DNA of 64,000 nucleotides, from NCBI GenBank assembly GCA_963664705.1, contig OY761556.1:6272001-6336000 (forward strand). Direction: 5' to 3'. Position numbers and translations under genes: made by a program. This DNA comes from Acidobacteriota bacterium (lineage in GTDB: Bacteria > Acidobacteriota > UBA6911). Position 1 is the first letter of the stretch; every line of letters begins with the position of its first letter. Below the pieces are notes generated by a model. The model made no database searches. It saw only the letters and a list, made by a program, of their open reading frames with translations, and was not told the DNA's origin. This document shows positions 32,344 to 39,526 of the stretch, piece by piece.

Positions 32344-32875
32344 AACAGCCCCTGACTTGACCGATTTAGTAACCATATCTTTCGGGAGATACAACAACCT
32401 GCCCCGCTATTCATGGGCATTTTAGAAATTAGGACCTTGATTTTCTCCTCACCCGATCAAATCAGCGGTAAGCAAAGCGCCGAAGGCGCGGAAGCAAGTA
32501 GCCAGGGGTTCGCTGCGCTCACCCCTGTCCATTTTCTATCGGGCCTCCGGCCCTTATGGATCGGGAACCGCGCATTGACGCAAACCGGGCACTTCCTCCA
32601 ATACAACCTGAACTTATTGAGCCAAGTTTTTTTCTAAGAATTGGATGACAGCGCCCTGGGCCTACCTGTTTGCCGCACGCAGAGCGCGATAGGAACCGCG
32701 AGCCCGCATGAACAGCCCCTGACTGACCGATTTAGTAACCATATCTTTCGGGAGATATAACAACCTGCCCCGCTATTCATGGGCATTTTAGAAATTAGGA
32801 CCTTGATTTTCTCCTCAACCGATCAAATCAGCGGTACGCAAAGCGCCGAAGGCGCGGAAGCAAGTAGCCAGGGGT
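32344..32875. repeat. ~165-bp direct repeat (32344-32509 and 32711-32875), each running into a REP palindrome
   Basis: Near-identical AACAGCCCCTGAC...GCAAGTAGCCAGGGGT with a few substitutions. Confidence 0.9.
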
Positions 32876-32938
32876 GAGCGAAGCGAACCCCTGGAATGAG
32901 ATCGGCAATGATGGAGCCCCGGCCAGGGGCGAAAGATG

Positions 32939-33048: not shown

Positions 33049-33224
33049 GTGCTTTCTTTCGCCCCGCTGGGGCTCGTTCAATCTGCAATCGAGTTCCAGG
33101 GGTTCGCTGCGCTCACCCCTGGCTGATATGGAGTGATCGGTCAAGTACAATCAATCCGTTCCTTGTTCGTTCATTTTGGTTTTCTTCGGTTCATAAATAA
33201 ATCAGCCAGTAAAAAGAACAGGGG

Positions 33225-33400
33225 ATCGAGTTGGCAACAGCGACGATAATCAATCTGATATTCGCGGGTCGATAAGCACGCATGACAACTGATTCATCGG
33301 GAGCGGCCTCACTCTACTTCCGTGGATTCTGGTTTCCCATACCAACATAGCCAGGTCGAGGTTTCTCCTTTCGAAGCCTGGAACTCGATCTCCTGTTCCG
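33225..33400 (-). ncRNA. Bridge/seek RNA candidate downstream of the transposase (ends approximate)
   Basis: Segments matching left target (33348-33355), right target (33314-33321) and donor junction (33254-33261). Confidence 0.7.
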
Positions 33401-33470
33401 TTCACTAACCGAATGTTTCCGTTATTAATCCATTGAAGAACAAAATAGCTGCAAGAGCTGGTGCCTTATG

Positions 33471-34565
33471 TCATGCAACACGACCGATAGCCCAGATAAA
33501 TCCTGCCAATTCTCGACTTACCGCAACCGCGATCTTTTGTCTTTCTTTCCCTCGGTTGAGCATGCGTCGGAATTTTTGATTCAATCGCTTATCGCAACGT
33601 TGTGCAATCTCGATAACTTCTGCCGGCAAACACTCTCGTCGTTTCTTGAGAGTTTTGCCAGCTACTGAAGAATGACGGTAGTGCCAGGCGCTTTCGATCA
33701 GCACCCTACGTAGGTGGCTGTTTCCCGTTTTGGTTATCCTTCCCCGTCTTTCAAGTTCACCTGAGCTGCTTTCCGAAGGCACCACCCCAATAGCGGCCAT
33801 AAACGAAGGCGCATCAACGAACCGTCTTAAATCGAGCGCTTCTGCGATAATCGTCATCGCCGTCAGAACCTGAACGCCTTTTAGCGCCATCAAATAGCTG
33901 ACTCGCTTTTGATAGTTCGGCTGTTTTGCAACTTCCTCGATTTTTCCCTGGAATGTTTTCAACCGCTCCGTCTGTTGCTCAAGCGCCTGTCGATATTCCT
34001 CCAGTACTGTTTGATCCCCATCATCCTCAAACACAAGGCTCTTAATCCACTTTAGGTGCCCAAGCGACCAGTTCTTGCCCTGCGGATATTTCAATCCACG
34101 TCGCATCAGAAACCGTGCTAATCGATGCCGTGCTCGCTGCTGGTCTTCCAATGCGTCTTCTCGCGCACGCACCAGATCTCGCAGACTTTCCTGTTCTTTT
34201 TGCGGGATCACAATACATGTTAGTTCTCCCGCTCGGTACAATTTGCCCAAGGCTTTCGCATCCAGCTTATCCGTTTTTACTTTTTTCCCCGCTCGTCTCG
34301 GAGTCAACGAAGGGGCCGCAACCTCACAAGAAATCCCATGTTTGGCCAAATAGCGCTGCAAATAGTATCCATTAACGCCCGCTTCGTAGACGCACCGTAC
34401 ATCATCTTCAAATGCCCTTAGCTTTTTCGCTAACCGACCCAGCCCCGTACTGTCGTTTGATACAACAAGTTCTTCTCGAGGGTTACTTTCCTGCCCGCGA
34501 AAAATTGCGACGTTTATCTTTTTTGCTGAATCATCCATCCCTACCCAAGTGATACAATCTGCCAT
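33471..34565 (-). CDS. IS110-family DEDD transposase/recombinase
   Basis: WVGMD, YEAG, KTDKLDA, VPSESSSG, ITKTGNSHLRR, AVSREL; GAGGAG RBS before ATG 34565. Confidence 0.95.
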   Translation of the reverse strand: MADCITWVGMDDSAKKINVAIFRGQESNPREELVVSNDSTGLGRLAKKLRAFEDDVRCVYEAGVNGYYLQRYLAKHGISCEVAAPSLTPRRAGKKVKTDKLDAKALGKLYRAGELTCIVIPQKEQESLRDLVRAREDALEDQQRARHRLARFLMRRGLKYPQGKNWSLGHLKWIKSLVFEDDGDQTVLEEYRQALEQQTERLKTFQGKIEEVAKQPNYQKRVSYLMALKGVQVLTAMTIIAEALDLRRFVDAPSFMAAIGVVPSESSSGELERRGRITKTGNSHLRRVLIESAWHYRHSSVAGKTLKKRRECLPAEVIEIAQRCDKRLNQKFRRMLNRGKERQKIAVAVSRELAGFIWAIGRVA

Positions 34566-34702
34566 GATCGGTCTCCTCATGTTTTATGGCTCTGCAGCTT
34601 CGTCACCACGACTTCAGCTGTAACCCACGATATTACATGCTAGAGACCGATCACTCCATTATGTCTACTTTCTATCGGGCCTCCGGCCCTTACACATTTT
34701 TA

Positions 34703-34973
34703 TTTCATTGCGTGCCAGTTTTTTAATCGCATTCCCGCTTTAGTTCTTAGTCGGAAATTTATCGATCAAATGCCGCGGTGGTAAAGCTGCAGGCCCAACC
34801 GGACAGTATTCGTATGCTGGGCTTGTTTTCGCTGGTGTTTTATCGAAAGCAAAAGGCAAAGGAGAGAAAGTTATGTCCAAAAAGAGAAGACTCAATATTC
34901 GATCCCTGTTGGGAATGCTTCCCCTGTCCTTTATTGGGCTCGCGTTGCTTAATTGCGCACAACCGGTGAGCGC
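34703..34973 (+). repeat. Duplicated leader + RBS + signal-peptide cassette, copy 1
   Basis: Ungapped alignment with 37224-37494 (offset 2521). Confidence 0.9.
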
Positions 34974-36972
34974 GAAGGTGACAAAGATCTCTATTACGTC
35001 CACGGAGTCGCCGACCTTCAGTGGCACGAGTTTCGGCTCCGTCGGACAATATGAGCGCATCCAGGGTACCATTACCGGCGAAGTGGATCCCACGAATCCT
35101 CAGAATGCTGTGATCACGGACATTGCCAATGCTCCGCGAAATTCCCACGGTATGGTCGGTTATACGTCCGATTTCCAGATCATTCGTCCGGTTGATCTTG
35201 CCAAAGGCAACCACCGCGTACTGTTCGACCTTCCCAACCGCGGCGTGCCCTACGCTCTCAACCTCTTCAATAACGGATCAGGCAATTTTAAGGGCGCGGC
35301 GGGGAACCCGGGTAACGGCTTCCTTATGACCCAAGGGTACACCCTGGTCCAGGTAGCCTGGGACATTGCCGCTCCGCAAACAGCTAGCACTTTTGCCGTG
35401 AACTTTCCCATCGCCATGCACCCTGACGGCTCGGCCATTACGGGAATCGTGCTCGAGGAATTCGTAATCGACAAAAGCGGAACGCCTGCCTCCATGCCGC
35501 TGACCTACGCGGCCGCGACGGCCGACAAGTCCCAGGCGACCCTTACGGTACGAGAGAACTACGAGGACACTCCGATAGTGATTTCGCCGGGCGGCTGGGA
35601 TTACGCCAACGCGGCACTCACCTCGGTAAAGCTCACTTCCGGCGCCTTCGGCGGGTCCGGTTCCTTCGGGCCTACGGCGCTTTACGAATTCACTTACACC
35701 GCCAAAAACCCGGTCATTGCCGGGCTTGGTTTTGCCGTGTTGCGCGATTTCTCCAGTTTCCTGCGGAACGCACAGAATGACGATATCGGCACTGCCAATC
35801 CAGTTGCCGGAGATGTGCAGTCCATCTACACCTCCTGTTTTTCACAGCCCTGCCGCATGATGCATGATTTCGTGCTGCTCGGGTTCAATGAAGCCGAATA
35901 CCTCCACAATAAGAACGGCAAGGGCGGCGCCGGAAACCAGCACGAAAAGGTCTTCGATGGCGTCCTCAATTGGGTCGGTGGCGGCAATGGCATTTACATG
36001 AACTATCGTTTTGCGCTGACGGCCAAGACACACCGCCAGCATATCGGGCGCTGGTATCCCGAGTTTCAGTTCCCATGGGCCAACCACATCACCCATGATC
36101 CCATTACGCAGCAGACTGCCGGACGGCTCGTGGCCTGCAGCAGGACCCATACCTGTCCTGAGATCATTGAGCTTAACTCAGAGAATGAGTACTGGGCCAA
36201 GGGAGGCTCACTGCTGACCACTGACACGGAAGGCAACGATCTCCAGCTCAACAATACGCCAAACGTCCGCTACTATCTGATGTCGAGTTTGCCGCATGTT
36301 GCAGCGACCGCTGCCGGCATTTGCCAGCAGCCCCAGAATCCGCTAACCGCGGGACCGGTGCTGCGGGCCCTCCTCGTGGATATGGACGAGTGGGTCACCG
36401 GCGGAACACCGCCGCCCGACAACCGCGTGCCGCAGCGCGACGACGGGACGCTTGTGCCATCGCTGCCGCAGTCGGGCGTGGGCTTCCCAGGCATCCCTGG
36501 AGTCAACTACACCGGCATTCTTCACGCGGGCGATCTATTCGATTACGGACAGCAATTTGACGCGGGGATCCTCAGCCTGCTGCCGCCGGTCGATCGTGGC
36601 ACCCCCTATCCTGTTTTCGTTCCCAAGACGGATGATGATGGCAACAACATCGCCGGAATTCGCTTGCCTGAAGTCTCCGTCCCGCTGGCGACTTATACCG
36701 GCTGGGCTCTGCGCGCGTCTGCCTCTGGAAATCCTGTCCCCATCATTGATGGCTGCGACGCGTACGGTCAGAAGATCCCATTCCGGAAAACCATGACCGA
36801 CCGACTCGCCGCGGGAGATCCACGCCTGTCTCTTCAGGAACGTTATGCCGATCATGCAACCTATGTGAACCTGGTCACACAGGCCGCCCGGCAACTCCAG
36901 GCCCAGCGCCTTCTGCTGGATATGGACGTACAGGCATACATAGCCGCGGCCATGTCCGCTGCCGTACCATAA
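34873..36972 (+). CDS. Secreted alpha/beta-hydrolase-domain protein (Abhydrolase_10-like)
   Basis: VGQYE, GEVDP, PNRG, GLGFA.LRD, SENEYW, DDDGN..AGIRLP, DPRLSLQERY. Confidence 0.8.
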   Translation: MSKKRRLNIRSLLGMLPLSFIGLALLNCAQPVSAKVTKISITSTESPTFSGTSFGSVGQYERIQGTITGEVDPTNPQNAVITDIANAPRNSHGMVGYTSDFQIIRPVDLAKGNHRVLFDLPNRGVPYALNLFNNGSGNFKGAAGNPGNGFLMTQGYTLVQVAWDIAAPQTASTFAVNFPIAMHPDGSAITGIVLEEFVIDKSGTPASMPLTYAAATADKSQATLTVRENYEDTPIVISPGGWDYANAALTSVKLTSGAFGGSGSFGPTALYEFTYTAKNPVIAGLGFAVLRDFSSFLRNAQNDDIGTANPVAGDVQSIYTSCFSQPCRMMHDFVLLGFNEAEYLHNKNGKGGAGNQHEKVFDGVLNWVGGGNGIYMNYRFALTAKTHRQHIGRWYPEFQFPWANHITHDPITQQTAGRLVACSRTHTCPEIIELNSENEYWAKGGSLLTTDTEGNDLQLNNTPNVRYYLMSSLPHVAATAAGICQQPQNPLTAGPVLRALLVDMDEWVTGGTPPPDNRVPQRDDGTLVPSLPQSGVGFPGIPGVNYTGILHAGDLFDYGQQFDAGILSLLPPVDRGTPYPVFVPKTDDDGNNIAGIRLPEVSVPLATYTGWALRASASGNPVPIIDGCDAYGQKIPFRKTMTDRLAAGDPRLSLQERYADHATYVNLVTQAARQLQAQRLLLDMDVQAYIAAAMSAAVP

Positions 36973-37223: not shown

Positions 37224-37494
37224 TTTCATTGTGTGCCATTTTTTTGATCGCCTTCCCGCATTAGTTCACAGTCGGAAATTGAAAGATCAAATACCGCAGC
37301 GGTGAAGCTGCAGGCCCAACCGGACGGTATTCGTGTGCTGGGCTCGTTTTCGCCGGTGTTTTATCAAAAGCTAAAGGCAAAGGAGAGTAAGTTATGTCCA
37401 AAAAGAGAAGGCTGAATATTCGATCCCTGTTGGGAATGCTGCCGCTGTCCTTTATTGGGCTCGCGTTGCTTAATTGCGCACAACCGTTGAGCGC
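37224..37494 (+). repeat. Duplicated leader + RBS + signal-peptide cassette, copy 2
   Basis: Encodes the same first 31 aa MSKKRRLNIRSLLGMLPLSFIGLALLNCAQP. Confidence 0.9.
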
Positions 37495-39526
37495 AGGCGT
37501 GACAACGAGTGAGCCGTCAGTATCACCTATAGCGCCGTGCAATGTTTCGACGTTTGCGACGTTAACCTCTCCTGAGGGGAATCTGGTGATCGATTCTGCG
37601 GCGATACGGTCCGCGAATTCAACTGGGGTAAATCCCAACGTCGAGTTTTGCCGACTCAAGGCTCACATCCATACCGCCAACACGCATGCTGCGAGTGAGA
37701 CCGATAAGGAAATCCAGATTGAGATTCGGCTTCCTTATAGCTCAAATCGCAGATATCTACAGTATGGGGGGACCGCCTATGACGGAAGTATTGGCGGAAG
37801 CCAGTATGCGCCGCTCAGTGGATTTGCGAGCTCTCTATTCAATACCGATGTTCCCACCTACAATACGGGTTCTGCGCCACTTGCCGCTGTGCCTCTGCCT
37901 GTTCAGCCGCTGAACCGCGGGTTTACTATTGCGGCGACCGACTCAGGGCATGTCGGCGCAACCAATGCCGATTCCAGCTACTTAAACCACCCGAATGGGC
38001 GGGATCGTTATACCAATTTTGCTTACCGGGCAAGACATCTCCTGGCTGTCACCGCCAAAAGTGCAATGGCCTTGTATTATGGTCAAGCACCTCTTTACTC
38101 CTATCATGCCGGCAACTCGGCGGGAGGACGACATGGACTGATTGAGGCGAACCGCTATCCGAATGAATTCAACGGAGTACTCGCGATAACCATTGGCGCC
38201 ACAGAAGGCGTTCGGCCGGCATGGCTTCGAAATATGCAAAAGCAGTTCCCGGTTGATACCGCTCATCCGGTGATTCCATTTAGTGCTGCAACGACTCCCA
38301 GCGCCCTGCTCGCAGCACTGGGTAACGCCACAATGGAAAAGTGTGATGCACAGGACGGTCTTGCCGATGGATTTCTTTCTGATCCGGCAACCTGTAACTT
38401 TGATATCGATACGGCCGGTATTTCGTGCCCGGATGACATTGCCGGATCCACCTGCTTGACGGCTGCGCAAAGAGAAGTCCTCAAGAGTCTCTACAGCCCG
38501 ACCATTCTAAATGGAACAACGGTCTACCCAAGCTTTCTGCCTGGCTATCAAGGGGATCCCGCGCTCGAATTTGGGAATCGATTCACGGGCAATAACGCCT
38601 CAACTTTACCGTCTCAGTACAACCTTTTTGATGGCGTCGCCAAGTATTTTTTCTTCGGGGATGTAGCGCGCACGATTTGGAATATCGACCTGGAGAATCC
38701 GGCGGATATGGATGCGTTTTTCAGCGCAATAACCCCGGCAGGCTTTGATCAAAGATTGCAATTAATCACGCCGGATCTGTCCGCCTTCAGAGCGAACGGC
38801 GGCAAATTGATTCTCTTCCATTCACTCATGGATCCGCTGTTATCGCCAATGTCCACGCTCGAGTTTTATCAACAGATGGCGGAGGTTTCCGGTGGTTTGA
38901 ATGCCACTCGCGAATTCGCTCGACTATTCCTGGTCCCGGGAATCGGACACATCGGTCGTCCGACCGCCGCTGGGGCGTACGGCCCGCTGGACTATCTGGC
39001 AGCACTTGAAGATTGGGTTGAGCGGGGGATTGCGCCTGAAACGCTGACGGGAGCGAACCCTCAGAATGCTGCCATGACTCGTCCTTTCTGCGCCTATCCG
39101 TTCAAAGCCGTCTACACAGGCGCTCCTGGGGATATCGGTGCAATGAATGTGGCTAGTAACTTTGGGTGTCGTTTCTATGATTTCGGCGGTTTTTTGAGCC
39201 CGGTGGATAACCTTCCGGCGGTCAATGAAGTGAAAGCGGGACAGGCGGTGCCCGTAAAATTCAGCCTGGGTGGTGATTGGGGGCTGAATATTTTCGCGGA
39301 AGGTTTTCCAATGACGGAACAAATCGCCTGTAATTCCGGCGCTCCGGCGGACAACAGCCAGGCAGCCGTAACCGCAGGGTCGACGCAGCTGAAATATGAT
39401 GCTGCCACTCATAAATACACCTACGTGTGGAAGACTGACAAAAGCTGGCAGCCAGGCACGTGCAGACAGTTGATCATGAGATTGAACGAAGGTACGACGC
39501 TGCGAGCGAACTTCAAGCTGAAGTAA
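37394..39526 (+). CDS. Tannase/feruloyl-esterase-family hydrolase with C-terminal PxKF domain
   Basis: ATDSGH, GNSAGGR, CDAQDGLADG, PDLSAFRANGGKLI, RLFLVPG.GH; tail GQAVPVKFSL...YVWKT. Confidence 0.88.
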   Translation: MSKKRRLNIRSLLGMLPLSFIGLALLNCAQPLSAGVTTSEPSVSPIAPCNVSTFATLTSPEGNLVIDSAAIRSANSTGVNPNVEFCRLKAHIHTANTHAASETDKEIQIEIRLPYSSNRRYLQYGGTAYDGSIGGSQYAPLSGFASSLFNTDVPTYNTGSAPLAAVPLPVQPLNRGFTIAATDSGHVGATNADSSYLNHPNGRDRYTNFAYRARHLLAVTAKSAMALYYGQAPLYSYHAGNSAGGRHGLIEANRYPNEFNGVLAITIGATEGVRPAWLRNMQKQFPVDTAHPVIPFSAATTPSALLAALGNATMEKCDAQDGLADGFLSDPATCNFDIDTAGISCPDDIAGSTCLTAAQREVLKSLYSPTILNGTTVYPSFLPGYQGDPALEFGNRFTGNNASTLPSQYNLFDGVAKYFFFGDVARTIWNIDLENPADMDAFFSAITPAGFDQRLQLITPDLSAFRANGGKLILFHSLMDPLLSPMSTLEFYQQMAEVSGGLNATREFARLFLVPGIGHIGRPTAAGAYGPLDYLAALEDWVERGIAPETLTGANPQNAAMTRPFCAYPFKAVYTGAPGDIGAMNVASNFGCRFYDFGGFLSPVDNLPAVNEVKAGQAVPVKFSLGGDWGLNIFAEGFPMTEQIACNSGAPADNSQAAVTAGSTQLKYDAATHKYTYVWKTDKSWQPGTCRQLIMRLNEGTTLRANFKLK

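Follow-up and report, generated by a model that had tools for sequence, protein, structure and literature searches.

Why do the copies of one mobile element come to lie at the same base of a repeated hairpin of their host, and what directs them there? The question is raised by an IS110-type element found in a window of 64,000 nucleotides from an Acidobacteriota bacterium, which the initial annotation had read as a natural recombinase programmed by a non-coding RNA for a REP family. The analysis described here leads to an answer that is very probably correct: the locus is an intact, multi-copy IS110-family IS, and its predicted bridge RNA, which lies on the downstream side of the gene for the transposase, likely directs the recombinase to CCTGG-CT-ACTT, a word at the end of the REP that bears GTAG. 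What the sequence itself establishes are the ends, an enzyme with its five catalytic residues, 11 sites, and four guide segments together with their covariation with targets and ends; expression of the RNA, formation of a circle and catalysis we infer from IS621 and ISEc11/ISPa11. The coordinates of the features are collected in Table 1.

Table 1. Features of the element and of the interrupted host repeat (positions in the window).
Feature	Position	Strand	Basis or remark
Empty copy of the same REP (GTAG-CCAGGGG...CCCCTGG) nearby	32864..32894	+	sequence
Palindromic body of the interrupted REP, CCAGGGG-N-CCCCTGG	33096..33122	+	sequence
IS110-family element, both CT core copies (AG on the gene strand) included	33123..34666	-	genome holds 11 full copies
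Sub-terminal inverted repeat, right end, 15 bp	33128..33142	.	3 bp inside the end
-35-like TTGACC	33139..33144	-	17 bp from CATAAT once the ends join
Predicted bridge/seek RNA of about 185 nt, with a closing helix and one arm each for target and donor binding	33215..33399	-	fold and consensus
Predicted donor-loop handshake dinucleotide AU	33253..33254	-	homolog comparison
Predicted right donor guide AUAUC-AG	33255..33261	-	changes with the right end in L043, L083
Predicted left donor guide UGU-C, one core base only, degenerate further out	33284..33287	-	homolog alignment, IS621 template
Predicted target-loop handshake dinucleotide AG	33312..33313	-	first base is the first base of the left end
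Predicted right target guide AAGU-AG	33314..33319	-	sequence match and homologs
Predicted left target guide CCUGG-CU	33349..33355	-	sequence match and homologs
Bridge recombinase/transposase of 364 aa, starting at the ATG that follows AGGAGA	33471..34565	-	369 aa if started at the upstream ATG, 34580
Sub-terminal inverted repeat, left end, 15 bp	34645..34659	.	7 bp inside the end, core counted
-10-like CATAAT, left end	34658..34663	-	half of the predicted circle-junction promoter
Rest of the interrupted repeat: AC of the other-strand GTAG tag, then second small hairpin	34667..34690	+	sequence

The element has a length of 1,542 bp, to which a second CT core is to be added, and the extent first given to it stands as to its ends but holds both cores. 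The core occupies 33123-33124 in one junction, CACCCCTGG-CT-GATATGG, and 34665-34666 in the other, CCATTATGT-CT-ACTTTC; both junctions bear out the restored target CCCCTGG-CT-ACTTTC and the donor junction TATGT-CT-GATAT of the initial annotation. A CT core is present at both ends, the target is not duplicated beyond it, and the orientation in the target is identical in all 11 full copies. The two 15-bp sub-terminal inverted repeats are perfect and leave end extensions of 7 bp (left) and 3 bp (right), the spacing outside the inverted repeats that the accessible part of PMC11187229 gives for IS1111-type elements. Joining of the ends would create the arrangement TTGACC-17-CATAAT, a predicted circle-junction promoter, in a junction that would read ...CCATATC-AG-ACATAATGG. 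A hexamer starting with TTG occurs at the -35 position in 31/31 homologous ends, and TTGAC in 29 of them; a simple scan of 33050-33520 yielded neither a stand-alone promoter nor a terminator on the gene strand. The end-to-end joint of a circle was absent from three contig sets, these being assemblies that drop rare forms. Joints skipping the 1,542 bases are present in the contigs; they are indistinguishable from other empty REP copies and hence were not used as evidence of excision.

The recombinase consists of an N-terminal DEDD RuvC-like domain and a C-terminal Tnp domain with a G..P....SG serine, detected as PF01548 (3.8e-16) and PF02371 (1.2e-18) in Pfam and by NF033542 in NCBIfam (206.7 bits, cut-off 140). 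Its residues D11, E61, D99, D102 and S268 align with the catalytic set of IS621 (D11/E60/D102/D105/S241), and the element is a member of the broad IS110 family. The nearest named enzymes are those of ISSso6 (38% identity) and ISEc45 (36%), while identity to five proteins of the IS4321 branch (IS4321, ISSaen1, ISShdy1, ISPsy16, IS5708) is about 25%. A tree of 25 rows, which does not include IS1111 and ISEc11 themselves and whose deep branch order has a support of 88/76, groups the recombinase with ISSso6 and ISEc45 (100/100) and places the IS4321-type proteins on a separate branch (100/99). The label IS110/IS1111 initially given to the element was therefore right for the ends, the position of the RNA and the guide order, but not for the enzyme. 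End extensions, a long downstream non-coding region (346 bp, against about 100 bp upstream of the gene), the strand order of the guides and the predicted end-joining promoter are those of IS1111 elements, whose enzymes form a tight, full-length-related clade of 330-350 aa; the present enzyme, with 364-369 aa, is on a separate branch. On these comparisons, the architecture is IS1111-type and the enzyme belongs to the ISSso6/ISEc45 branch. Some elements of the IS110 side also have a downstream non-coding region, according to the available text of PMC11187229. Literature searches by element name returned genome surveys only and no functional study of ISSso6 or ISEc45, and none of the titles returned by a search for recent ortholog work names this branch, which may still be among those studied.

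The repeat that the element interrupts consists of GTAG followed by CCAGGGG-N-CCCCTGG, with 111 arms found by pattern in the genome. It fits the definition of a GTAG-type REP, described in the part of PMC3733652 consulted as an unpaired GTAG tag plus a palindrome in many extragenic copies. A blastn search of the single-contig genome gave twelve matches to the element, 11 of them full length and 98.9-100% identical, the twelfth being a 93-bp relic of the left end. The restored site is CC(T/C)GG-CT-A in 11/11 full copies, and ten of these are inserted in one REP family at the same base, the CT core; the same holds for the relic. The guides are unchanged in 11/11 full copies, no difference between copies falling in one. 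The REP occurs in the variants CCTGG and CCCGG, and the variant that matches the guide, CCTGG, makes up 9/10 occupied versus 37/92 empty repeats (Fisher p 0.005). The eleventh copy lies off-REP, at ACCTGG-CT-ATC, which matches the guide region over ACCTGG-CT-AT and forms no hairpin (z +0.9). The initial annotation had named other copies in unrelated targets as the finding that would speak against it; once mapped, all 11 were at CC(T/C)GG-CT-A, ten in the same REP. Its claim that the recombinase is programmed for the REP family holds for these ten, but the word recognised would be only about 11 bp and one copy sits in a hairpin-free site.

The off-REP copy (G000:C1:2938671-2940214; L112:2172-3715) interrupts a frame of about 93 codons resembling RelE/YoeB/ParE, for which toxin profiles remain below cut-off and match a 40-aa piece. 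The frame precedes a gene for a 120-aa helix-turn-helix protein, a toxin-first toxin-antitoxin layout, and the junction of this copy is also present in contigs of a second sample. The relic (G000:C1:4126127-4126219; L113) retains the 93 bp of the left end in its REP, and its remainder seems to have been lost by a deletion bounded by short CCT matches, one in the REP arm and the other in the left end. Elsewhere in the genome, a Y1 HUH transposase gene of 148 aa, a candidate for the RAYT that goes with GTAG-type REPs, lies between two inverted GTAG REPs (G000:C1:1439827-1440273; L098:1408-1854) and is followed by short tandem repeats. In NCBIfam this Y1_Tnp gene matches only an IS200/IS605 model (55.8 bits, cut-off 55), and with its flanking REPs it resembles a REPtron and is likely where the repeat family comes from. 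In the composite repeat, the second small hairpin has sub-threshold matches to the Rfam motif Acido-Lenti-1 (26.3 bits, cut-off 37) at window positions 32476-32506, 32842-32872 and 34665-34690, a hint that this motif may be part of a REP-like repeat. To the left of the element there is a direct repeat of about 110 bp (window 32400-32520 and 32765-32880), each copy of which ends in a REP arm. Two neighbouring genes resembling those of secreted hydrolases (window 34873-36972 and 37394-39526) share a near-identical upstream region and first 35 codons and then diverge.

The matching words that the initial annotation had located on the minus strand were all recovered: CCTGGCTA at 33355-33348 (8/8), GGAAGTAG at 33321-33314 (7/8) and ATATCAGA at 33261-33254 (8/8). 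As guides they are correctly positioned, but two of the matched bases belong elsewhere: in CCUGGCUA the final A opens a conserved AUG scaffold, and in AUAUCAGA the final A occupies the handshake position of the donor loop, the programmable parts being shorter than the words. CCUGGCU, which pairs with the gene strand, comes before AAGUAG, that is, the top-strand match is 5' of the bottom-strand match. The order is, as had been claimed, that of IS110 bridge/seek RNAs, and the layout is that of the IS621 template, including a left donor guide that covers a single core base (PMC11208160, in its supplementary file 7). The left donor guide itself, of which no clean form had been found, does exist as UGUC (33287-33284), just before the second AUG scaffold, and covaries in relatives; the earlier remark remains true in that the match here is only 4/7, as it is in the homologous loci L082 and L083. 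The words CCTGGCT, AAGTAG and ATATCAG appeared in this order in 0/200,000 mononucleotide shuffles of the downstream non-coding region, a figure obtained with motifs picked after the fact, for which comparison of homologs is the real control. Folded as a single sequence, 33399-33215 gives a long closing helix and two arms, with z -2.0 and 7/200 shuffles as good. In the free fold the guides are paired to one another; forced opening keeps the scaffold at a cost of 6.7 kcal/mol. Both arms are kept in the consensus fold of 35 homologs, with compensatory pairs such as U-A in 18 and G-C in 16, or G-C in 19 and A-U in 15, of the 35, and within the RNA conservation is highest in the donor arm. Rfam contains no model that matches the predicted RNA, the only matches being the three sub-threshold Acido-Lenti-1 ones on the repeats.

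Homologous non-coding regions, a comparison that the initial annotation had proposed, showed guides that change with the target as well as the compensated fold described above. The set comprised 87 loci (80 plus 6 from searches, and the window), and both ends, following the pattern AG-N5-ATG...CAT-N3-AG, were found in 54. Both target guides could be placed in 50/54, L002, L030, L057 and L058 failing the scaffold pattern, and 26 distinct guide pairs were left after dropping identical pairs and four rows with short flanks. With a guide-placing pattern that uses no flank letters, but was written after viewing the homologs beside their flanks and hence is not blind, the non-core matches over the 26 pairs amounted to 112/156 for the first guide (shuffle mean 38) and 80/130 for the second (shuffle mean 47), and 0/20,000 shuffles reached either value. 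Reduction to one row per cluster left 83/100 and 59/80 at 90% identity and 64/75 and 44/60 at 70%, with 0/10,000 shuffles in each case; at 55% identity, with 7 clusters, the observed scores were reached by 5/10,000 shuffles. The homologs come from several phyla and have unrelated targets. The closest relatives are reprogrammed in step, as illustrated by L083 (guide CUGGG, flank CCCAG) and L001 (guide ACUU, flank ACTT). Because matching falls with distance from the core, to 5/26 at position -6 of the first guide and 7/26 at position -5 of the second, the programmable parts would be about 5+2 and 4+2 nt.

The core itself varies in L045, L047 and L054, where the left junction has AG and the right AC or AA, and the core letters of the first guide follow the right-junction core; by these letters, the three loci are natural cases of core reprogramming on one strand only. 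There are also misfits: the first guide matches 0/6 in L061 and 2/6 in L060 and L033, and in L010 and the L028 group (L028, L029, L032, L068) the flank is fitted only with a one-base shift of the first guide. The four copies of the L028 group lie at four different sites, which suggests that register slippage is tolerated. On the donor side, the left donor guide matches the left end at 103/140 non-core positions over 28 rows (shuffle mean 76, 0/20,000). Variants of the right end are mirrored by the right donor guide in L043 and L083, though not in L044. Behind the right target guide stands, in 26/26 pairs, the first base of the left end, two with T/T and the rest with A/A, which is the behaviour expected of a handshake guide. 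Near-identical Dehalococcoidia elements (L007-L025, L053, L055, L063) carry different guide pairs, and several of these copies are flanked by one and the same repeated sequence, as though they had inserted into a different mobile element.

The predicted handshake of the donor loop differs from that of IS621. Its base is A in 25/31 homologs, pairing with the element's own donor in 24, and it equals the target base in 6/6 of the non-A homologs. In IS621 a change to donor pairing, G166A, sharply reduced insertion, as stated in the available part of PMC11208158, and donor-loop handshake pairing has been tied to the balance of insertion and excision (PMC13626964, likewise in part). By our own count, which takes the register as shared through homology, there would be one Watson-Crick handshake pair before and one after exchange here, against one and three in IS621. 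It is conceivable, though rather doubtful, that the ISSso6/ISEc45 branch is a separate lineage combining IS1111-like ends and a downstream RNA with a two-loop bridge RNA like that of IS621, and operating on another handshake setting. The point of this proposal is that an A pairing with the donor cripples insertion of IS621, yet the present element has reached 11 copies. If true, it would provide a bridge recombinase that leans less towards insertion and excises more readily, and for which nature supplies a table of compact guides (5+2+4).

Pairing with the guide may be complemented by a second recognition layer, the REP hairpin itself, as in ISPpu10; such a layer would add to the RNA-guided reading, not replace it, and we regard it as a serious possibility that nevertheless falls short of an even chance. 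Ten of the 11 copies lie in REPs when 7.4 would be expected from equally matching empty sites (P 0.028); a cruder null based on mismatch counts (5.9 expected, P 1e-5) ignores position weights and overstates the excess. All imperfectly matched sites in use (ACAA, ACGA, ACTA, ACTC) belong to REPs, the left target word forms one of the two hairpin arms, and the accessible text of bioRxiv 10.64898/2026.03.19.712850 supplies the ISPpu10 precedent. The copy in the hairpin-free site argues against the layer, and selection would give the same excess, given that most off-REP sites lie in genes and that the lone survivor lies in the toxin-like gene of a toxin-antitoxin pair, which can probably be lost without harm. 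Moreover, the number of sites, eleven, is small, and they may not represent independent insertions.

What the donor arm contributes can be questioned too. A 4/7 left donor guide here, in L082 and in L083, and a short species of 82-96 nt as the dominant RNA of ISEc11, ISPa11 and ISKpn4 (PMC11187229, in the text available) would suit a scheme in which only the target arm acts, as a short seekRNA, while recognition of the ends falls mainly to the protein, by way of the sub-terminal repeats, and the donor arm of this element is either not needed or in decay. We consider this unlikely, since the donor arm is the RNA part with the highest conservation, its left guide covaries with the left end, its right guide changes as the right end does in L043 and L083, and the donor-loop handshake base follows the target in every non-A case. 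Far less credible still is that the matches arose by chance or from a captured piece of REP and that the protein alone picks the site. The matched words are indeed short (6-8 nt), but covariation extends across homologs of several phyla with unrelated targets, and the guides have a fixed position inside a conserved fold and an order never seen in the shuffled regions. The homolog test refutes this reading in practice.

In the RNA-guided reading, which we prefer, the element most likely excises as a circle, whose junction promoter would transcribe both the gene and the RNA. A recombinase tetramer would then read CCTGG-CT-ACTT with the target arm of the RNA and the joined ends with its donor arm, and strand exchange would take place at CT. 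Many of these traits are shared with IS621, as far as the consulted parts of PMC11208160 and PMC11208158 describe it: a DEDD plus serine active site, a CT core and a junction promoter, and, from the former, the guide order of left target guide, right target guide with handshake, left donor guide with one core base and right donor guide with handshake. IS621 also targets a REP, at the same CT of the CTAC/GTAG word, its target being reported as ATCAGGCCTAC. The element differs from IS621 in that the RNA is downstream and not upstream of the gene, the ends are inverted relative to the gene, with the left donor coming from the left end, the sub-terminal repeats are long and the guides shorter (about 5+2 and 4+2). 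The enzymes are only distantly alike (E 3e-6), and the donor-loop handshake A that here pairs with the element's own donor corresponds to the G166A change by which insertion of IS621 was reportedly lowered.

With ISPa11, ISEc11 and ISKpn4, as they appear in the available text of PMC11187229, the element shares sub-terminal repeats with 7- and 3-bp extensions, a long downstream non-coding region, a top-strand match before the bottom-strand match and a junction promoter; ISPa11 targets REPs as well. Compared with the IS1111-family seekRNA elements so described, the enzyme is longer (364-369 versus 330-350 aa) and on its separate branch, the repeats are of 15 bp instead of the usual 11-13, and the donor loop can be read as a simple two-sided one. 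The ends of ISSso6 follow the pattern found here, AG-N5-ATG...CAT-ATC-AG, and its gene has the same RNA scaffold downstream, whereas the targets and guides of ISSso6 and ISEc45 differ from those found here. ISPpu10 and ISPpu9 of Pseudomonas putida, set beside the element by published description and not by sequence, are IS110 elements in repeated, hairpin-bearing intergenic targets. For ISPpu9 a small RNA downstream of the gene is described, as is predicted here, and the contribution of the hairpin, only suggested here, is reported as demonstrated for ISPpu10 (bioRxiv 10.64898/2026.03.19.712850, in the part consulted).

The element is a well-supported new example of an RNA-guided IS110 element, the mechanism of which is already known. 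Nothing is added as mechanism, because the 2024 descriptions of IS621 and ISPa11 were already of RNA-guided insertion into REPs. The value lies in practical use: the element is a clean ortholog that has spread recently, with four guides and both handshakes assigned and with 26 natural guide-target pairs, which could therefore be used directly in an ortholog screen. It would also allow two points to be tested on a small scale: whether specificity gains from a hairpin in the target, and whether the handshake rule of IS621 holds on the ISSso6/ISEc45 branch.
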